From contig JANOSY010000089.1 of assembly GCA_031416075.1 (NCBI GenBank), forward strand, positions 21,087 to 85,086: DNA of 64,000 bases, read 5' to 3'. The number at the start of each line of letters is the position of its first letter. Position 1 is the first letter of the stretch. Source of the stretch: Candidatus Tenderia sp. (GTDB lineage: Bacteria > Pseudomonadota > Gammaproteobacteria > Tenderiales > Tenderiaceae). A model generated the notes under the pieces. The model was not told the origin of the DNA. It saw only the letters and a list, made by a program, of their open reading frames with translations, and searched no databases. Below, piece after piece: positions 1,811-63,452 of the stretch. A program made the position numbers and the translations under genes.

Positions 1811-2632
1811 GGTTCTGTTGACGTTTCCCAAGTTTAGTAGAATCTACCGTTTTAGGTTGGCATGGACAGAACCAAATTAAGGGATAGCGAGTGGGTGCGT
1901 ATATTGCCTGAATTGACAAAATTGACTGACGTGCATCTCGGATCGCTCGATAAATGCAGGCGATTTATTGGCGCATCATTGTGGATATTGCGCACAGGCG
2001 CGCAGTGGCGAACGCTGCCGCCAGAGCATGGCAAATGGAATAGCGTCTTCAAGCGATATTCACGTTGGTGCTCGAACGGTGCCTGGGATAAGTTGCCCAA
2101 CTGTTTTTCTGAACATGCTGATTTACAAGATGTTTCTATTGATGGAACGGTGACGAGAGCGCACGCCTGCGCCGCAGGCGCTGTGGGCAGTTCGGCTGAA
2201 AAAGAGGCGCTTGGGCGCTCCAAAGGCGGGTTTAGCAGCAAGATTCATGCGGCCTGTGATGCGATTGGAATGCCGATTAAGTTCATACTGACGGGTGGTC
2301 AAGCGGCTGAGTGCACGGTGGCCATGCCGTTGCTGGACGGTATCCAAACATCAGCACTTCTGGCAGATAAAGGCTACGACACAAACGAGTTGCGCACGTG
2401 GTTAAAGGCGCATGGGATAGAGGCTGTGATTCCGCCGAAATCGAACCGAAAAGAGCACATTGACTGCGATTTTTGGCTTTACAAGGAGCGGCACGCCGTC
2501 GAATGCATGTTTGGCAAGCTCAAGCATTATCGTCGAATTGCCACTCGTTATGAGAAAAAAGCTATTAATTATATGGGGATGCTGTCTTTTGCGTCGGTGC
2601 TTCTATGGCTGAGATGAAACGTCAACAGAACC
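1811..2632 (+). mobile_element. Complete IS5-family insertion sequence (822 bp)
   Basis: Perfect 17-bp terminal inverted repeats GGTTCTGTTGACGTTTC / GAAACGTCAACAGAACC, with TA on both flanks. Confidence 0.9.
1862..2617 (+). CDS. IS5-family DDE transposase
   Basis: WILRTGAQWR, IDGT..RAH, GRSKGGFSSKIH, ADKGYD, YKERHAVECMFGKLKHYRRIATRYEK. Confidence 0.92.
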   Translation: MDRTKLRDSEWVRILPELTKLTDVHLGSLDKCRRFIGASLWILRTGAQWRTLPPEHGKWNSVFKRYSRWCSNGAWDKLPNCFSEHADLQDVSIDGTVTRAHACAAGAVGSSAEKEALGRSKGGFSSKIHAACDAIGMPIKFILTGGQAAECTVAMPLLDGIQTSALLADKGYDTNELRTWLKAHGIEAVIPPKSNRKEHIDCDFWLYKERHAVECMFGKLKHYRRIATRYEKKAINYMGMLSFASVLLWLR

Positions 2633-2694
2633 TAATATAGCTTATTCATCGGGGAATATGTTTGGTTCCGATATGTTGGTTTTTAAACAGCCTG

Positions 2695-3576
2695 TTAATT
2701 GGCAAAAGGTGTAACCTTCAGCGCTTTTAACGCAGCTTCCAATTTATCCAAACTGATGGGTTCTACAAAACCATCAATGCCAGCACTTTTAGCTGCGGCG
2801 TCATCTGATTTAAGTGCCAAAATAGCGGCTTTTACCTTTGCTGCCAGATCCGCTGGTGTGTTTTTGGAGGAGACCAGAAACCATTCTGGGTACAGATCTG
2901 TACTATGTGCTAATGGCAACTCATCTTTTTTCTCATCAACGATAGTAAAGTCACTAACAGATAGTTTCCCTTCTTTCTGCATTGCCTCCAGCACACCGCT
3001 CCGAATAAAACCAACGTCTATCACACCCGCTTTAACCGATAACGGAATATCATCCTGCTTTTTAGACTCTATAAATGATGCAAATTCCGATGACTTAACA
3101 CCGGCCTGCAAAACGTGGCTGGTCTGGAATAACCAGGCACCGGCAGAGACGCCAAATTGATAGCCCATGACATGTTTGCCTTTCAGATCCGTGGATTTAT
3201 TAATGCCGCTACCACTTTTAGAGATAATCACCCCGGCAAACTTTGTTGCCCCTTTGGTTTTCATCGTGGCCATGGGCTTGGCTCCCAATTGCTTAATGAC
3301 AACAGCCGCTAAGACGGGATTCACCAGGACAAAGTCAACCTCACCTTTTTCCACCGCGTCGTCTATCTTTTCGGCCAGCAGTGGTACCAGCTCAATCGGT
3401 TTTCCCGCCGCTGTGCTCATGTATTCTGTTAATGCCTCCCATTTTTTTGCCTCCAGTGGTCCACGGGGTGCATTGACACCAAAACGTAAGTCGGCAGCAT
3501 GGCCCGCCACAGAAAACAGCAATGCACCAACGCCCACTGCCCTTAACCAGATACTTTTACGCATAGATACCTTCAT
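2695..3576 (-). CDS. Stand-alone phosphate/phosphite/phosphonate-binding periplasmic protein (PhnD-like)
   Basis: Signal peptide; GEVDFVLVNP, SDLKGK-like segment, STDLYPEW; no ABC partner genes adjacent. Confidence 0.7.
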   Translation of the reverse strand: MKVSMRKSIWLRAVGVGALLFSVAGHAADLRFGVNAPRGPLEAKKWEALTEYMSTAAGKPIELVPLLAEKIDDAVEKGEVDFVLVNPVLAAVVIKQLGAKPMATMKTKGATKFAGVIISKSGSGINKSTDLKGKHVMGYQFGVSAGAWLFQTSHVLQAGVKSSEFASFIESKKQDDIPLSVKAGVIDVGFIRSGVLEAMQKEGKLSVSDFTIVDEKKDELPLAHSTDLYPEWFLVSSKNTPADLAAKVKAAILALKSDDAAAKSAGIDGFVEPISLDKLEAALKALKVTPFAN

Positions 3577-3745
3577 ATACTTACAGTAATTATTCGGCGC
3601 TTATTAACAAAACTGAAACAAGCAACATTCATCACTAGGGAGTAACGGCGGTAGCAGGTTTTTTCTTTAAACGGGGAGAGGCTGTTTGTATTACAGCGCT
3701 AACAGGTCTGTTATGGCGAGGTATCAACTAGTGGATGGGGGCTAA

Positions 3746-4204
3746 GGAACCTCTGAATAATCCCCACAATCTGGCATAATTATCACCGTTAATCCAGCGA
3801 GATAAAAAGATGACTCAACTGACTTTGGCCGAAGCAGAGTATGCCCACAAAAGACACAAAACACGCCGTGAGCTGTTGCTGGCGAAAATGGATAGGTTGA
3901 TCCCCTAGACCAAGTTGGAAAAAAATTGCACCCTATTACCCCAAGGCCGAGAACGTCCGTCCGCCCTATCCATTACCCACCATGCTGCGCGTACACAGCC
4001 TGCAATTATTTTACAATCTAAGTGATCCTGCCATGGAAGACGCATTGTATGAAATCGAATCCATGCGCCAATTTGTCGGTTTGCGGTTATCCGAACGTCT
4101 GCCAGATGAGACCATGATACTAAACTTCCGCCACTTTCTGGAACAACACAACCTGGGCAAAACACTATTCAACACCATCCATCAACATCTATCCGAACAG
4201 CTCC
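3746..4204 (+). pseudogene. Truncated IS5-subgroup element with a degraded transposase
   Basis: CTAA|GGAACCTCTGAATAA left end; ATG 3810 MTQLTLAEAEYAHKRHKTRRE..IP*; after a frameshift [33 protein letters not shown]; no DDE C-terminus. Confidence 0.85.
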
Positions 4205-20396: not shown

Positions 20397-21788
<1,392 letters not shown>

Positions 21789-45629: not shown

Positions 45630-47246
45630 ATGGGCACAAAAACACCAGGTAAGAGGGTAGGTCCGCAAGAAAATCATACAGAGTCCAGAAATGAGCAGTT
45701 TGGAAGTTCAATTCTTAGCTCGGAAGACTCCCCTCTTACACCCCGAGAACAACCCGAACTAGTATTTGGGTTGGTCGGACCGGTTGGTGTTAACCTTGAT
45801 CCAGTGATCTCGGTGCTAACGAGGGAGCTTAAGGTACTAACTTATAAAGCAAAAACTATCCGCTTAAGCAAGCAGATCGAGTTGTTTTTTGGTTCCGACC
45901 ATAGCAAAGAGTCTGAAGATAATCGGATTACAAAGTTGATGGACGAGGGAACGAAACTTCGAGTGGACAGTGGAAGGGGCGATGCGGTTGCGCTTCTGGG
46001 AATCATGGAAATTAAAAGGATTCGGGATGAAGAGTTTCATGGCCAATCCGCGGGCAATGCATATATTTTGCGTTCATTAAAACATCCCCATGAAGTTGAG
46101 ACTTTGCGCAACGTTTACGGCAAGGGCTTTTTCCTTATCTCTGTATACTCACCTAGGGATGTGCGGGTGACTGCTTTGGCCGATCGTATAAATAGGTCAC
46201 AGTTTGGAAAAGGCAGCAACGCGCGGTCGATAGCTGAGCACATGGTTGAGCGTGATGAGATGGAGGAAAGCACATCTCTTGGCCAAGACGTTAAGGACGC
46301 TTTTCCATTAGCTGACCTTTTTGTAGATGGTAGAAATAAGTCTTCTTTAGAAGCGCAGATAAGTCGATTCCTTCATTTGTTGTTTGGCAACGTTTTTGAT
46401 ACACCGACACGTGATGAACACGGTATGTATCATGCCCGCTCAGCTGCGTTGCGCTCTGCGGATCTTGGGGCTGCAATTCTTAGGACAGAAGGCGATATTC
46501 TTGCAGTTGGTTGTAATGAGGTACCAAAGTCCGGTGGTGACTTGTATTGGCCTGGGGATAAAGGCGATGCTCGAGACTTCCAAAAGGGGATCGATGCAAT
46601 GGCTGAGGAACGAATCCAAGTTCTTGGTGAACTTCTGGAAAGATTTGATAGGCACGGGTTGCTCTCGAAGAGCGCTGGCAAAAATGAATTAGATACATTA
46701 GTACGAGAACTCGTATCAGGTGATAAGAAAACAGTGCTTAAGGGCACAAGAGTAATGAATTTGTTGGAGTTTGGCCGAAGCGTTCACGCGGAGATGGCTG
46801 CATTAATGTCCGCAGCAAGACTTGGAATTTCCGTTCACGGCGCGACTTTGTTTTGTACTACTTTTCCTTGCCACATGTGCGCTAGGCATATCGTTGCCAG
46901 CGGGGTAAAGCGAGTGGTATATGTTGAGCCTTACCCGAAAAGTAAAGCTAGGCACTTACATCAAGACTCAATCAGCGTTGATCCCTCGGTACCGTCTTCA
47001 GATCACGTGAACTTTGTGCCATTTGAGGGCATCGCTCCGAGACAGTATCAGGACATCTTTGATGCTCGTGACTCCCGAAAGGATAGCGAAGGAAGAGCTA
47101 TCGATTGGCGAGCACATGCAAAGCCTCGATTCCTGCGCTTTATGAATACCTACATAGATATTGAAGTTGCAATAGTGGCTAAAGAAATACCTCTTCTTGC
47201 CGAAAAAATTGGTGTTAACTTACATCTAGAACCAGATGAAACATAG
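45630..47246 (+). CDS. Anti-phage dCTP deaminase (P-loop kinase + deaminase, AvcD-like)
   Basis: N-terminal ELVFGLVGPVG; C-terminal HAEMAAL, TTFPCHMCARHIV, YVEPYPKS. Confidence 0.85.
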   Translation: MGTKTPGKRVGPQENHTESRNEQFGSSILSSEDSPLTPREQPELVFGLVGPVGVNLDPVISVLTRELKVLTYKAKTIRLSKQIELFFGSDHSKESEDNRITKLMDEGTKLRVDSGRGDAVALLGIMEIKRIRDEEFHGQSAGNAYILRSLKHPHEVETLRNVYGKGFFLISVYSPRDVRVTALADRINRSQFGKGSNARSIAEHMVERDEMEESTSLGQDVKDAFPLADLFVDGRNKSSLEAQISRFLHLLFGNVFDTPTRDEHGMYHARSAALRSADLGAAILRTEGDILAVGCNEVPKSGGDLYWPGDKGDARDFQKGIDAMAEERIQVLGELLERFDRHGLLSKSAGKNELDTLVRELVSGDKKTVLKGTRVMNLLEFGRSVHAEMAALMSAARLGISVHGATLFCTTFPCHMCARHIVASGVKRVVYVEPYPKSKARHLHQDSISVDPSVPSSDHVNFVPFEGIAPRQYQDIFDARDSRKDSEGRAIDWRAHAKPRFLRFMNTYIDIEVAIVAKEIPLLAEKIGVNLHLEPDET

Positions 47247-57827: not shown

Positions 57828-58484
57828 ATGAATGAAGAGAATATACAGGTGATTGTGGATGGCACCCTGGCAGAGGGTGCCACAGCTGCCGAGGCTAAGT
57901 CACGGATCGCTCAACTTTTTAAGACCAGTGTTGACAAGATAGAACCGATGTTCAGCGGCAAACCGTTTGCCGTTAAACGGGAGCTGGATCTGGAGACCGC
58001 ACGTAAATACCAGGCGGCGTTACTCCAGGCGGGGCTGATGGCCAAGTTGATGGCAGCGGCCCCACCGGCAGCCCAATCAGCCGCGCTGCAAAACGCCTCA
58101 TTGGCCGCTACCGGGAGCGATATCGATACCACGCCCGCCCCTACCCCCCTCAATATTGATACCAGCGCCATCTCCATGGCCGACGCCGGCATCACCATCA
58201 TGGAACATGCCCCCGTTGCGGCAGCGGAGATCGATACCAGTCGGCTACAGGTAGATCAGGCTGGCCAGACGCTTGACCAGACCCCCACCCCCGTTGCCCC
58301 TGACATAGATACCAGCCGCATCAGCCTCGCCAGCGTAGGGGAGGATGTGATGGACTACCTACCCATTCCAGAGGTTGATATCGATACCAATCTCACTATC
58401 GCCGAGGCGGGCATTACCATCATGGAACACAAACCGGTCGCCCCTGTACATATTGATACCAGCAAGATCAAACTGGCCGACTAG
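57828..58484 (+). CDS. Hypothetical protein with about 25-aa IDTS tandem repeats
   Basis: Repeating IDTS.ISLA..G..IM units. Confidence 0.7.
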   Translation: MNEENIQVIVDGTLAEGATAAEAKSRIAQLFKTSVDKIEPMFSGKPFAVKRELDLETARKYQAALLQAGLMAKLMAAAPPAAQSAALQNASLAATGSDIDTTPAPTPLNIDTSAISMADAGITIMEHAPVAAAEIDTSRLQVDQAGQTLDQTPTPVAPDIDTSRISLASVGEDVMDYLPIPEVDIDTNLTIAEAGITIMEHKPVAPVHIDTSKIKLAD

Positions 58485-59271: not shown

Positions 59272-60345
59272 ATGAGCAAACAACTACCGCACGCGCTGCA
59301 CGGACGCGGCGCCATCAGCAATCCCGACAACCGTTTTGAATCAACACAGCGCGAACTGATCGACGACGGCTGGGACAGCCTCGACCAACCGCTCGAACCG
59401 ATCCGCACCACCCTCACCATCGACAGCGCCAAAACGGTGATCAGCTACAACCAGTCGCCCGACATTCCGTTTGACCGCTCCATCAACCCCTATCGTGGTT
59501 GTGAACACGGCTGCGTCTACTGCTTTGCCCGCCCCACCCACGCCTACCTCGGACTATCGCCGGGGCTAGACTTTGAAACCAAACTTTTTTATAAACCCGA
59601 TGCCGCCACGCTCTTGCGTGAAGAGCTGGGCAAACGCAACTATCAACCGCAACCCATCGCGCTCGGCATCAATACCGACTCCTATCAACCCGTCGAACGC
59701 ACAGTTGGCCTGACACGCCAGATACTCGAAGTGCTGCAAGAGACACGACACCCCGTCACCATCGTCACCAAATCAGCCATGATCGAACGTGACATCGACA
59801 TACTCGCCGAGATGGCGCAACAGAATCTGATCAGCGTCGCCCTCTCCATCACCACACTCAACCGCGACCTCAGCCGTCGCTTAGAACCACGCGCCGCCGC
59901 ACCACAACGCCGCCTTGAAACCGTGCAAAAACTCAGCGACGCCGGTATCCCCGTATCAGTACTCATCGCACCACTCATCCCCGTGCTCACCGACAGCGAA
60001 CTCGAAACCATCATGGAGCAATCACGCCACGCCGGAGCCAGAAGTTGCGGTTATGTACTGCTACGCCTGCCCCATGAACTGAAAGAACTCTTTCAGCAAT
60101 GGCTGCACGAACACCAACCACTCAAGGCCGAACATGTGATGAACAGAATCCGCGACTGCCGCGGCGGCAAAGAGTACCAGGCAGAATTTGGCACACGCAT
60201 GAGCGGTGAAGGAATCTTCGCCGACCTGTTAAGACAACGTTATCAGCGCGCCATGAAGCGGCTTGAGTTTGGAGGTATGCCGGAGCTGGAGACACAGCAC
60301 TTCATCAAGCCAAGGAAAGAGAAAACGCAGATGGAGTTGTTTTGA
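59272..60345 (+). CDS. PA0069/Rv2578c-family radical SAM protein
   Basis: GRGA.SNP..RF, SINPYRGCEHGCVYCFARPTH. Confidence 0.9.
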   Translation: MSKQLPHALHGRGAISNPDNRFESTQRELIDDGWDSLDQPLEPIRTTLTIDSAKTVISYNQSPDIPFDRSINPYRGCEHGCVYCFARPTHAYLGLSPGLDFETKLFYKPDAATLLREELGKRNYQPQPIALGINTDSYQPVERTVGLTRQILEVLQETRHPVTIVTKSAMIERDIDILAEMAQQNLISVALSITTLNRDLSRRLEPRAAAPQRRLETVQKLSDAGIPVSVLIAPLIPVLTDSELETIMEQSRHAGARSCGYVLLRLPHELKELFQQWLHEHQPLKAEHVMNRIRDCRGGKEYQAEFGTRMSGEGIFADLLRQRYQRAMKRLEFGGMPELETQHFIKPRKEKTQMELF

Positions 60346-60376
60346 GGGTTGGCATACACCGCGGGAAGAGCCCAGC

Positions 60377-60400
60377 GTAGGGTGCATTCCATGCACCCTA
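60377..60400 (+). repeat. GTAG-type REP hairpin
   Basis: G-TAGGGTGCAT-TCC-ATGCACCCTA. Confidence 0.65.
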
Positions 60401-60413
60401 TGAAACTCTTTCG

Positions 60414-61214
60414 CTAATGCTCCGCAGTTGTGCCAAAAGGAAGTTTTCGAAAACTAAGATGCTCAAGCCTAAACTCAAAGGTGTCGCGTACATTTTTCAA
60501 AGTGAATTCTGTATCTGCTATAGGGATACACTCAATGAGTTCCAGCCCCTGTGAGGCAGTAATCAAACTACTAAGTGACTCGGCTATTGTTTGCGCGCGA
60601 TCAGAACTACCCGACTCGGCTGTATTGGATACCACATAGACCCATAATTCGTAAGGTTCCTGCTCAGGAAGCTCTTCATTGCGCGGCTGATAGTCGATGA
60701 ATATACCCAAAACATCATCGGCTGATTTTTTAAGTTTATTATTAGCGCCTTCGAATACCGGGCTCATGCGATTATTAAGGGTGTCTGGAAACGCATGCCT
60801 ACGATAACGCGCCGCGAGCCAGCGCTGAAGTACATACCGATTACTACCAGAGACAGAAAACGAGTTGTCTGGAAAAGTGCCTATCAAGTCAGCTTTTTTA
60901 ATGCTTTTCTTCTCTATGGCCATCATTTCGAAGAAAAAAGGCTGGCCGTTGCGTAAAAACTCTAAGTGCAAACGGCGGGTGTTTTTGGCCTGCGCGAAAT
61001 TCCCGTCGATACTTTGGATTGCCCGAGCGATGATGACCTCAACGTAAGGTTCGTCGGTTAGATTATCGTTAGCAATATCGCAATCATGTGATATTAGGAT
61101 GGCAAAATCATCCCCACTATGCAGCTCAAGCAAACGAATCGCTATCCCTGCCGCCAGGACTGAGCCTTGTCGATAAGGAGTTTCGCGTCCCCAACCCTGC
61201 GTCGTCTCTGTCAC
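60414..61214 (-). CDS. Hypothetical protein, putative toxin/effector
   Basis: YRQGSV, ILISHDCDI, WLAARYRRHAFPD; last gene of a coupled triplet. Confidence 0.55.
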   Translation of the reverse strand: MTETTQGWGRETPYRQGSVLAAGIAIRLLELHSGDDFAILISHDCDIANDNLTDEPYVEVIIARAIQSIDGNFAQAKNTRRLHLEFLRNGQPFFFEMMAIEKKSIKKADLIGTFPDNSFSVSGSNRYVLQRWLAARYRRHAFPDTLNNRMSPVFEGANNKLKKSADDVLGIFIDYQPRNEELPEQEPYELWVYVVSNTAESGSSDRAQTIAESLSSLITASQGLELIECIPIADTEFTLKNVRDTFEFRLEHLSFRKLPFGTTAEH

Positions 61215-61227
61215 TCAAAACGCCTCT

Positions 61228-61956
61228 TCACTCAGGATAAAGTGGAATGCTTTCGGATGATAACTCCTCATCCGGGAGTGGCACTTGACCAGACCCGCGA
61301 GCTTTACTCCGGGTCATAGCCTCCTTCTCATCAAGAGAACGCAGAGCATCAAACCGACTGTAAACTTCCTGGCCTTGTTTAAGAAAATCAAAAAAGGAAT
61401 CGCCATTTTCAAAAACGGGTCTTTTTACAAGGTTTCCTGCTCGATGAAGATCAAGCTTAGCGAAATTATCCGCCACCCTGGCAAGCCAGAGAATTTTTTC
61501 TGCTGCTTCTGGTCTTGGTTCTTGGCCATCTAGCCATGCATATATAGTTGGTCGCGATGAACTCAACAAAGTAGCAAGGTCTGTTGCATTCAATCCAAAA
61601 GCTTTTCGGATATCTTGCAGCTGTTCACTTACCGTGCGGGTTTCAGCTTCTTTATAACTGGTTGTGGAATTTGCAGTTTCAGTAGAGAAGCGCACTAAAT
61701 TAGCGCGGTTACGGGATAACAACTCACGCAGACCATCCTGAGTTAGCCCATGCATCGCACCCGATCCGAAAATAGTACAAGCCATTGTTGTTGCAATTCC
61801 AAATCGGGAAATAAACCTTAATGGTGTATTGAAATAATCAAAGCGCTCCTCTGTTACTTTTGGTTGAATAGGCATAATGTTTGTCTTCGCTGGCTGCGGA
61901 ATAGAACAACCGGTACGAAAAGCCAGTCCTCTCGCCGGAAAAGATGTTGCTGTCAT
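61228..61956 (-). CDS. HTH DNA-binding protein with a long low-structure N-terminus
   Basis: IRKAFGLNATDLATLLSSSRPTIYAWLDG; ATGA overlap with the upstream stop. Confidence 0.7.
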   Translation of the reverse strand: MTATSFPARGLAFRTGCSIPQPAKTNIMPIQPKVTEERFDYFNTPLRFISRFGIATTMACTIFGSGAMHGLTQDGLRELLSRNRANLVRFSTETANSTTSYKEAETRTVSEQLQDIRKAFGLNATDLATLLSSSRPTIYAWLDGQEPRPEAAEKILWLARVADNFAKLDLHRAGNLVKRPVFENGDSFFDFLKQGQEVYSRFDALRSLDEKEAMTRSKARGSGQVPLPDEELSSESIPLYPE

Positions 61957-62750
61957 TTCCATTGCTCCTTAGCGAAAGGAGTGATTGTGTTCTCGAACGC
62001 GAGGCTAATGCCCTCCCGCAGTTTATAAAGTGCTTCCTCGATTACAGGAACCGAATATTCAATCCTACTATCCAAAAAGCAGTCATTATCAAGCACCGTA
62101 ACTATCCCATTGCATGGACTAAAGCGTTCCTGAATTACCAAAGGCAGAGGCAACAACTCCGGTGGCAAAGGAGGGTAGTCGCTTTGCGACTTAACTGTAA
62201 ATGCCCGGCTGATCAACGTTCCACAAGGTAATTGGGCAACAGTTTCGACCATGCTATGCAGAAGTCCTTCATCAAACTTCCCACTTAATCCCTGGGCTTC
62301 AGGTTGAATATACTGACTGATAGTCTCTCCGGTAGTCGGCATCACCGCATTAAGGTAGCGCAAGCCAATGCGCTCAATGAAATCAAGCTCGACCACTTTG
62401 TGCACAATTTCCAAGCCTTCAAGTAACTCGGCAAAAAAACCCCCGCGCTCCTGATATTGTGTGGTGTGATAGATCAAAGCATCCTGCAACAATAGAAATC
62501 CTGCGGTTTTTTCACGGTTAGAGATACGCCAACGTGCGACCTCCCGCTGTTCTACCTTCTGCGACTGAGAACCGTCCATTGACACACCAAACGACACCAC
62601 ATGCTGCTTGTCATCTTGAATATCTGAGTAACCAGCCCGGCGCAGGAGGTCCGCAATCTCTGTTGCGTACTTCTCCATGACGGGGATAGCATTGAATTGG
62701 ACGTGTGCCAAAACGTAGAAAACGGGAGCATTGCTCCATTGAGTGCTCAT
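61953..62750 (-). CDS. TIGR04255-family protein
   Basis: NAPVFYVLAHVQF, IERIGLRYLN, VLDND, FENTITPFAKEQW. Confidence 0.75.
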   Translation of the reverse strand: MSTQWSNAPVFYVLAHVQFNAIPVMEKYATEIADLLRRAGYSDIQDDKQHVVSFGVSMDGSQSQKVEQREVARWRISNREKTAGFLLLQDALIYHTTQYQERGGFFAELLEGLEIVHKVVELDFIERIGLRYLNAVMPTTGETISQYIQPEAQGLSGKFDEGLLHSMVETVAQLPCGTLISRAFTVKSQSDYPPLPPELLPLPLVIQERFSPCNGIVTVLDNDCFLDSRIEYSVPVIEEALYKLREGISLAFENTITPFAKEQWK

Positions 62751-62928
62751 GATATAAACACCTCTGGTCAACCAAGTGTTAAGTAAAGTGTAAGGTAAGA
62801 TGCTTTACATTTAACTTTACACCATGGCGACGAAATTCACCAGTAACCACCAAATAAAAAATTAGTCGTGCGGGGGGGGGTGTCAACATCTGGATTCTGG
62901 CCCTTGTGTTCTATGGATATGTGCCCGA

Positions 62929-63031
62929 GTATCGGATTAGCGCAGCGTAAACCCGACAATACAGACTCAAATCAACCTCTGCTGTTGGGTTACGCTGCGC
63001 TCTTGTCCCCGAATGGGGGAACCCAACCTAC
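62929..63031. repeat. Inverted REP doublet (REPIN-like)
   Basis: CGGATTAGCGCAGCGTAAACCCGACA ... TGTTGGGTTACGCTGCGCT..AACCCAACCTAC. Confidence 0.7.
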
Positions 63032-63047
63032 ATTTTCTGGGATCGTT

Positions 63048-63452
63048 CTACCGCTCAAATCCACCATACTGTGCCAGAAAAGTTTTTATCCCCTCCCGCT
63101 CGAACCACTGCACATCCCACGCCTGTGTTGCCAATTTTTCGTGATGACGATAGAGGTAGACCGCTGCCATCACTACGCTGTTATCAGCCAGAGTTACGGG
63201 GGCTTCGATCTTTTCGTAATTATCGCCTTCGAAGTTGTCGAGGCGTTGCATATCTTCAGACCTGACATTCATGTAGAGGTGGCCGTCGATGTAATCGGCA
63301 GCTGATGCCGCGATGGCGGCAGGATAGGTTTCACCTTTGATGCAGCAGCGTTGATGGCCGTGGAGTCGTGCGGATTGTTTTTTGTATTCCCCACGCACGA
63401 CAACTGACCAGACTTGGGGGAACATGAGTGAGCCGTAGGTGAAGAGGTGCAT
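63048..63452 (-). CDS. Gamma-glutamylcyclotransferase (AIG2-like)
   Basis: LFTYGSLM, YPA, LDNFEG. Confidence 0.88.
   Translation of the reverse strand: MHLFTYGSLMFPQVWSVVVRGEYKKQSARLHGHQRCCIKGETYPAAIAASAADYIDGHLYMNVRSEDMQRLDNFEGDNYEKIEAPVTLADNSVVMAAVYLYRHHEKLATQAWDVQWFEREGIKTFLAQYGGFER

Follow-up and report, generated by a model that had tools for sequence, protein, structure and literature searches.

The question raised by a three-gene operon on contig JANOSY010000089.1 of Candidatus Tenderia sp. (assembly GCA_031416075.1) is what its products do together. The stretch of DNA that was analyzed, referred to below as the window, is 64,000 nt long and covers contig positions 21,087 to 85,086. 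A preliminary description of the window had pointed to three tightly packed same-strand genes, linked by an ATGA overlap and then a 13-nt gap, and had proposed them as a candidate toxin-antitoxin-chaperone (TAC)-like defense system. The three open reading frames (ORFs) are present as described, which confirmed the observation, and the interpretation is partly supported. The genes are called A, B and C here, in order of transcription, and together they are called the triplet:

61953..62750, minus strand: gene A, a TIGR04255 protein of 265 aa from the ATG at 62750
61228..61956, minus strand: gene B, an Xre-type helix-turn-helix (HTH) protein of 242 aa, or 244 aa if translated from the ATG at 61962
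60414..61214, minus strand: gene C, a 266-aa protein with a GTG start, the SHDCD protein and putative effector (toxin)

Across genomes, A, B and a pair of sequence boxes upstream of A make up a constant chassis, the genes are coupled and co-diverge, the third gene has been swapped, and the whole unit is mobile. The operator-like box pair and the replacement of the third gene by a Zeta toxin gene are new here. With about even confidence, the triplet is interpreted as a mobile, autoregulated, tripartite toxin-antitoxin (TA)-like conflict module that is a candidate for abortive infection or addiction, the roles of the individual proteins being those that we infer below.

Conservation of the triplet, its upstream boxes and its third gene

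Loci for comparison were collected by scanning one genome of each species for a pattern, which gave 52 loci with a relative of C. By tblastn, A was found in 48 and B in 45 of the 52, while blastp searches against the ORFs found each of them in 48. One locus with no BLAST match to A (L051) has an upstream 264-aa ORF that matched TIGR04255 (2.4e-23, NCBIfam), and three others (L029, L033 and L050) were cut by a contig end and are hence uninformative for A. All 49 informative loci had A, B and C on the same strand and in the same order. A same-strand ORF stood in the middle position in all 52 loci, including four in which B was not matched (L030, L040, L043 and L047); there an ORF of 168-224 aa fills the gap between A and C, with weak HTH matches in three cases and none in L040. 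The gap between A and B was -74 to +16 nt in 43 of 44 loci, and that between B and C was -14 to +20 nt in 47 of 48, the exception in each case being a broken gene. In the window, the TGA stop codon of A (61955..61953) shares bases with the B start codon at 61956..61954, forming the ATGA overlap if B starts there and not at a second in-frame ATG at 61962. The stop codon of B (61230..61228) and the GTG of C at 61214 are 13 nt apart, and the spacer contains an AGAGG Shine-Dalgarno-like stretch. The recurrence of this gene order and coupling is far beyond chance.

A-B-C is kept as a unit across phyla, in support of the preliminary description. The hosts include Cyanobacteria, Gamma- and Betaproteobacteria, Acidobacteria, Deinococcales (Deinococcota) and Sphaerochaeta (Spirochaetes). 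Divergence was compared among 26 sets of sequences, the window and 25 loci chosen as complete for all three genes. The Mantel correlation was 0.94 for A-B, A-C and B-C, and was reached in none of 2,000 permutations. In the tree of C from the same sets, Acidobacteria are mixed with Proteobacteria, and the distribution of Pseudomonadota requires four changes. The genes that flank the triplet in the window do not travel with it at the other loci. Its GC content is 46.6%, compared with 54.9% on either flank, and for that reason the triplet in the window looks like an acquired low-GC insert.

C was found on 10 plasmid records and A on 14, with 10 common to both, and integrases adjoin the triplet in Meiothermus and Chroococcidiopsis. 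A PHROG family of unknown function matched A (9.1e-5) and phrog_34320, also of unknown function, matched C (3.1e-11), which indicates that both families occur in phage genomes as well. In RefSeq the three products carry the names 'TIGR04255 family protein', 'helix-turn-helix transcriptional regulator' or 'hypothetical', and 'hypothetical protein'. On the 339-kb Klebsiella pneumoniae plasmid NZ_CP093490.1 (L053, 310615-312879), the triplet is on the margin of a prophage-like region, with a phage tape-measure gene a few kb before it and xseA/guaBA after it. No match to the Klebsiella triplet DNA was found by blastn (distant mode) in 5,426 complete genomes of E. coli, so the triplet is probably out of reach of E. 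coli-based screens.

Two features overlap one another immediately upstream of A in the window:

62802..62823, minus strand: putative operator with two direct TGTAAAG boxes (62821..62815 and 62809..62803) at a spacing of 12 nt
62783..62820, no strand assigned: imperfect inverted repeat with 16-nt arms that are 81% complementary, overlapping the boxes

The boxes lie 59-71 nt upstream of the A start codon. Upstream regions were compared for the window and the 46 loci with at least 170 nt of upstream sequence. A direct TGT[AC]AA[ACG] pair with a spacing of 10-12 nt was found in 46 of these 47 regions, 17-91 nt before the start of A, and the sole exception (L048) has a TGTATAG pair instead. The background frequency of such a pair was 37 in 5,558 160-nt windows of the loci, a count that includes the true sites, and 1 in 798 in the window analyzed here. 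The operons of Klebsiella, P. luteola and Ralstonia, the last with a Zeta gene in third position, are also preceded by the pair. The overlapping inverted repeat may add a third, inverted half-site. Conservation of this kind suggests that the TGTAAA box pair is probably the operator of B, in keeping with the antitoxin or repressor role first suggested for the HTH protein. The most diverged triplets, from Mesorhizobium and Chroococcidiopsis (L055 and L056), have no TGTAAA boxes. By eye, Chroococcidiopsis has another direct repeat with the same spacing, which hints that operator and HTH protein co-vary.

The third gene was replaced in one locus. On a Ralstonia megaplasmid (L057) that has A (TIGR04255, 5e-41), a B homolog and the same box pair, the gene in third position is not C; its product matched Zeta_toxin (PF06414) with 38.3 bits (cut-off 22.3). 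A 79%-identical A protein is encoded on a second Ralstonia plasmid. A diverged C was found in Mesorhizobium (1.4e-17) and a borderline one in Chroococcidiopsis (1.1e-3). The Zeta_toxin member in the place of C argues from sequence that the third position is a swappable effector slot, occupied in one case by a known toxin family. Beside the Ralstonia operon (2410-3765, minus strand) is a gene for a ThiF/E1-like protein with DUF6791 (2.9e-29 and 1.6e-16). ThiF/E1-like proteins of the DUF6791 type are found in ubiquitin-like conjugation systems linked to defense.

The three proteins

Protein A matched the NCBIfam family TIGR04255 with an E-value of 2.6e-34 (119.2 bits, cut-off 30; residues 5-265 on profile positions 2-252 of 252), and the A proteins of L051, L055, L056 and L057 also matched above the cut-off. 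No match to A was found in Pfam, PADLOC or PDB sequences, including a profile search against PDB chains. The family has no Pfam model and no solved structure, and no mention of TIGR04255 was found in the literature searched. A profile search among 1.84 billion sequences gave 5,351 representatives at 50% identity with E ≤ 1e-3, 2,144 at 1e-10 and 667 at 1e-30. Most of the 150 relatives listed are stand-alone proteins of about 255-275 aa (range 224-334). A search for fused forms of A, as relatives of 505-2000 aa, found none, which is weak evidence.

The AlphaFold2 model of A, built with an alignment of 29 relatives, had a predicted local distance difference test score (pLDDT) of 92.9 and a predicted template modeling score (pTM) of 0.89, and consists of two successive beta-alpha-beta4-alpha halves. 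Its Foldseek matches in the PDB were weak (E 1e-3 to 2e-2, template modeling (TM) score 0.2-0.4) and were to RepDE, to S-adenosylmethionine decarboxylase (AdoMetDC) and mostly to TATA-binding proteins (TBP). Only TBP/VETF-like proteins were matched among viral models, the best being an unnamed 202-aa protein (3.4e-7). By this model A is predicted to be a TBP-like pseudo-dimer and not a SecB-like chaperone. The idea that the TIGR04255 protein is a chaperone of SecB type was consequently dropped; the model is a confident one, and SecB was not among the 50 PDB matches listed. Eight residues were invariant in 26-29 relatives (P9, R37, R131, G154, D221, D223, F252 and W264) and four more nearly so (N20, Y99, E169 and R182). 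This conservation suggests a binding or catalytic site.

The HTH of B is located at about residues 113-160, and all of its Pfam matches were under the curated cut-offs (HTH_31 22.2 vs. 27; HTH_3 21.6 vs. 23; Xre-like-HTH 19.4 vs. 25.8). A profile of B relatives matched Xre-type HTH proteins among PDB chains (DBP48 2.6e-4, CylR2 1.1e-3, with HigA antitoxins weaker). NCBIfam gave weak matches to MqsA-family and Xre/ParS antitoxins in the HTH region only (NF049845 13.6 bits, cut-off 90), and PADLOC v2.0.0 gave only weak RmrA matches over the HTH (2.1e-4). In the alignment the N-terminal 100 or so residues are variable and include a conserved glycine-rich G-T-G-G-like motif (G64). Conserved HTH residues are R135, Y139 and W141. 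The HTH is followed by a conserved helical region of about 70 aa, which had no match among PDB sequences, and then by an acidic tail. Two readings of B were considered and set aside. A resemblance of the helical region to the ParS/MbcA toxin-binding domain had no support in the NCBIfam and PDB profile searches, and a hydrophobic N-terminal stretch was rejected by eye as a transmembrane segment, not being hydrophobic in many relatives.

Protein C belongs to no Pfam, NCBIfam or PADLOC family and had no Pfam match at E ≤ 1, and in the ESM Atlas it fell only into 'hypothetical protein' clusters. There were 290 relatives among 1021 candidates; the 120 listed had no Pfam domain, and every named one was 'hypothetical'. 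A search for fused forms, as relatives of 521-2000 aa, again found none, which is weak evidence. The two segments singled out in the preliminary description, ILISHDCDI and PYVEVIIAR, are both present in C. The first contains S42-H43-D44-C45-D46-I47, which is invariant in 28 C sequences, as are E55, P56, E59, K77, N78, R80, W132, R136, Y137 and R139. In more distant relatives on plasmids the SHDCD motif is relaxed and the cysteine is retained.

The AlphaFold2 model of C (pLDDT 86.3, pTM 0.60) has an N-terminal barrel and helix to about residue 140, of which the MazF-like part is about 130 aa, followed by another long helix and, at about residues 165-250, by an alpha/beta domain. An additional C-terminal domain, as had been expected, therefore follows the MazF-like half in the predicted structure. 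The top Foldseek matches in the PDB were nearly all of MazF type (M. tuberculosis MazF-mt1, the MazF proteins of S. aureus, E. coli and B. subtilis, and MoxT). Superpositions on MazF had TM scores by target of 0.45-0.61 and root-mean-square deviations of 4.3-5.9 Å over 124-139 aligned columns, with 9-17% identity. The PemK/MazF likeness noted earlier thus stands in so far as the best structural matches are of that type, without a link at the sequence level, and the model points to a resemblance of fold only.

Disrupted genes were found mainly in the third position. C was interrupted by a stop codon, frameshifts or truncation in L005, L037, L038 and L052. A was also broken in L005, and B was intact throughout. 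The pattern fits a losable toxin with a retained partner, in small numbers. In the predicted complex of A, B and C, interfaces with C as a partner had ipSAE scores of 0.20 and 0.16, compared with a mark of 0.32; these values come without controls and count neither for nor against binding.

Genomic context

The nearest features on either side of the triplet in the window are:

59272-60345, plus strand: radical SAM gene, the flank beyond the end of gene C
60378-60400, no strand assigned: hairpin with a perfect 10-bp stem, between the convergent stops of the radical SAM gene and C
62939-63001, no strand assigned: inverted repeat (15-nt arms, 33-nt spacer) on the upstream side of the operon, where the low-GC insert has its other boundary
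63048-63452, minus strand: GGACT-family gene, the flank upstream of gene A

Further genes on the flanks encode PAP2, GGDEF-EAL and MFS proteins. All of the flanks are ordinary, and the housekeeping character first ascribed to them was borne out. Hairpins of the repetitive extragenic palindromic (REP) type had been reported on both sides of the triplet. Both hairpins exist, but the REP identity did not hold, each being single-copy in the window: no second copy of the hairpin at 60378-60400 was found within the 64 kb, nor were both arms of the repeat at 62939-63001 found together again. The former had no score as an intrinsic terminator and probably marks a transcript end or the boundary of the insert. 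A scan of 60300-63100 for consensus promoters and terminators gave nothing over the shuffled expectation. A run of nine G residues at 62872-62880, some 120 nt before gene A, could be prone to slippage; the operator boxes lie to one side of it and the distal inverted repeat to the other.

Genes near the triplet at other loci were surveyed by comparing 307 flanking ORFs (minimum 90 aa, no more than 5 kb away, greedy choice) with PADLOC models, counting matches at E ≤ 1e-10; one scan used E ≤ 1e-5. At the stricter threshold 32 of the 307 ORFs matched, in 18 of the 52 loci, or in 14 without those loci whose matches were all to the generic models mad2 or mad3. Several triplets are placed directly among defense genes. 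In L046 (531-8654) the triplet lies between PglX (1302 bits) and BrxH (1399 bits), those of L007, L014 and L015 lie between DrmMI/type IIG-like and DruE-like helicase genes, and that of L039 is adjoined by Thoeris ThsA/ThsB, PDC-S18 and DRT. In L032 the triplet comes after a type IV restriction enzyme, and in L011, L015, L024, L036 and L037 it adjoins PD-Lambda-2, AbiEi, PDC-S58/PtuB, PDC-S04 and PDC-M66B. In L046, L007, L014 and L015 the genes to either side are the methyltransferase and helicase genes of BREX-like (PglX/BrxH) or DISARM/type IIG-like clusters, and in L014 the orientation of the triplet is opposite to theirs.

Two other genes in the window may be recorded. The product of one, on the plus strand at 45630-47246, directly after rapA and about 13 kb from the triplet, is 538 aa long, contains a cytidine/deoxycytidylate deaminase domain (PF00383, 1.2e-16) and matched the PADLOC 'dCTPase' model very strongly, at 1.5e-156 (521 bits); we take the gene to be, probably, a nucleotide-depleting anti-phage gene. 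The other, also on the plus strand (57828-58484), is a 218-aa ORF without a Pfam family in which a unit containing I-D-T-S/T is repeated several times.

Known systems and alternative explanations

Several known systems resemble the triplet in part. As in MazEF/PemIK (Kid), C closes an operon of tightly coupled genes in which a DNA-binding protein precedes it, with an operator-like repeat upstream, and the 130 or so N-terminal residues of C have the predicted order strand, strand, short helix, four strands, long helix. However, C has no PemK_toxin (PF02452) match, is 266 aa long and has a second domain. The partner of C is an Xre-HTH protein of about 210-245 aa and not of the MazE/AbrB or ribbon-helix-helix type, and a third, larger gene A is always present. 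MazF is not known to have a counterpart of the invariant S-H-D-C-D motif. The TAC systems HigBAC, CmdTAC and MqsRAC likewise have three coupled genes that include an HTH antitoxin-like protein, and some TAC systems reportedly defend against phages, in work by Vassallo et al. and related work. In the triplet, by contrast, the third protein is the 265-aa predicted TBP-like pseudo-dimer, the extra region of B is N-terminal and not a C-terminal chaperone-addiction tail, and no PADLOC model matched A or C. Since A is not SecB-like, the triplet is not a TAC system in the sense of HigBAC or CmdTAC.

PezA of the PezAT (epsilon-zeta) systems is an HTH antitoxin-repressor, and the Ralstonia variant, with its Zeta_toxin member behind an HTH protein, is the only form of the triplet that resembles them. 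PezAT has two genes and no TIGR04255 partner, whereas the triplet of the window has no Zeta. Xre-RES systems (ParST/MbcTA) differ in that C has no RES match and that B matches Xre-like-HTH only under the cut-off. A parallel in arrangement is offered by CapK/CapS and CapH/CapP, regulator pairs that precede immune operons of various kinds, in which a constant pair of sensor and DNA-binding protein stands before a variable downstream effector. These pairs consist of an anti-sigma-type kinase with a STAS protein, or of a metallopeptidase with an HTH protein, which are unrelated families, and searches of Pfam, NCBIfam and PADLOC gave neither a kinase nor a peptidase signature for A. A MazF-like domain serves as the effector of a validated anti-phage system in type II Gabija, where the GajC domain is split and is paired with the GajB helicase (PMC13069673), unlike C. 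No description of the triplet was found in the literature searched on tripartite TA, MazF-like, Zeta and TBP-like systems, and no named system was matched in PADLOC v2.0.0, in which A and C had zero models. The triplet is like a type II or tripartite TA system and is no member of MazEF, TAC or Xre-RES.

Under the interpretation as a TA-like conflict module, B would bind the boxes and repress the operon, as type II antitoxins do. C would be the toxic effector; its predicted PemK/MazF-like barrel would most likely act on RNA, with the invariant S-H-D-C-D cluster as the putative functional center. B, A or both would hold C inactive in healthy cells. A, with its invariant Arg/Asp/Glu cluster on a TBP-like pseudo-dimer, may be a sensor or adaptor, and upon a trigger, for example phage infection or loss of the element, A would let the effector act. 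A broader form of this proposal is possible but doubtful: TIGR04255, the HTH protein and the TGTAAA operator would be a widespread modular sensor/antitoxin platform that arms MazF-fold or Zeta toxins for abortive infection, and TIGR04255 would be a new TBP-like sensor of a phage product.

Several points weigh against the conflict module. The MazF matches of C are weak, with E-values of 3.7e-3 at best (to 5e-2) and none at E ≤ 1e-3. Searches of PDB sequences with phmmer and with a 28-sequence profile of C found no MazF chain at E ≤ 10, and the Arg and Thr positions reported to be catalytic in MazF are not evident in C. Nor does A look like a classical antitoxin or a SecB chaperone, being a well-folded, strongly conserved protein of large size. 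The Zeta replacement was seen in one examined locus, frameshifts in metagenome bins may be assembly errors, and the immediate neighbors of the triplet in the window are housekeeping genes. In a crude control of 50 hand-picked window ORFs, 5 matched PADLOC models, which is the same rate as 32 of 307; four of the five are housekeeping proteins by Pfam (RapA, TatD and two S-adenosylmethionine methyltransferases). The preliminary description had looked to enrichment in defense islands. Individual loci are embedded among defense genes, but the rate per flanking ORF equals that of the control, and therefore no enrichment is demonstrated; the case for defense is anecdotal and rests on the particular embeddings, not on statistical enrichment.

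That the third gene varies behind a constant set of A, B and boxes also suits another explanation, in which A and B are a sensor-repressor pair that controls only the transcription of a stand-alone effector, and C or Zeta would do no harm as long as it is not produced. Conservation of the operator speaks for tight control of transcription, the invariant polar cluster of A would suit ligand binding or catalysis, and pairs of this kind exist, CapK/CapS-like proteins having been co-opted into a TA locus with VapC (PMC13373217). Translational coupling (overlaps and gaps of 3-20 nt) together with strict co-divergence is, however, more typical of proteins that form a complex, and a repressor encoded on the toxin's own transcript cannot alone stop leaky toxin synthesis. 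Moreover, the effectors seen were of just two types, while Cap regulators stand before entire systems of several genes, and we consider purely transcriptional control unlikely.

Carriage on 10 plasmid records, adjoining integrases, a PADLOC rate on the flanks no higher than that of the control and the position of the triplet alone among housekeeping genes in the window would all be expected of an ordinary addiction module that acts by post-segregational killing without phage defense, the nearby defense genes reflecting shared mobile DNA. The embedding in BREX/DISARM-like clusters (L046, L007, L014 and L015) and beside Thoeris and DRT (L039) is typical of defense cargo, though, and addiction and defense are compatible roles, which leaves addiction alone a rather improbable account. 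The weakness of the structural matches of A and C, the lack of any family link to a toxin at the sequence level and the likeness of the predicted A fold to DNA-binding and enzymatic TBP-like or AdoMetDC-like proteins could even point away from conflict altogether, to a small operon of regulatory or enzymatic function in which C is a non-toxic SH3-like barrel that binds nucleic acids or a ligand and A is an enzyme. Against this stand the patchy distribution, incongruent with phylogeny, the low GC content of the insert, the replacement of the third gene by a bona fide toxin family, the inactivation that falls on C, and the mobile or defense genes among the neighbors, and such an operon seems very unlikely.

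Whichever function the conflict module has, one mobile cassette gives TIGR04255 and the nameless family of C a testable function and a defined cis-element, and the natural swap between a predicted MazF-fold protein and a Zeta kinase points to the effector gene. If the triplet is anti-phage, the tripartite systems would gain a member in which no chaperone and no known sensor serves as third component. If it serves addiction only, the range of MazF-fold toxins would still grow by a two-domain type that carries a Cys/His/Asp motif. Were the platform proposal true, it would provide the first function for a family of more than 5000 sequence clusters.

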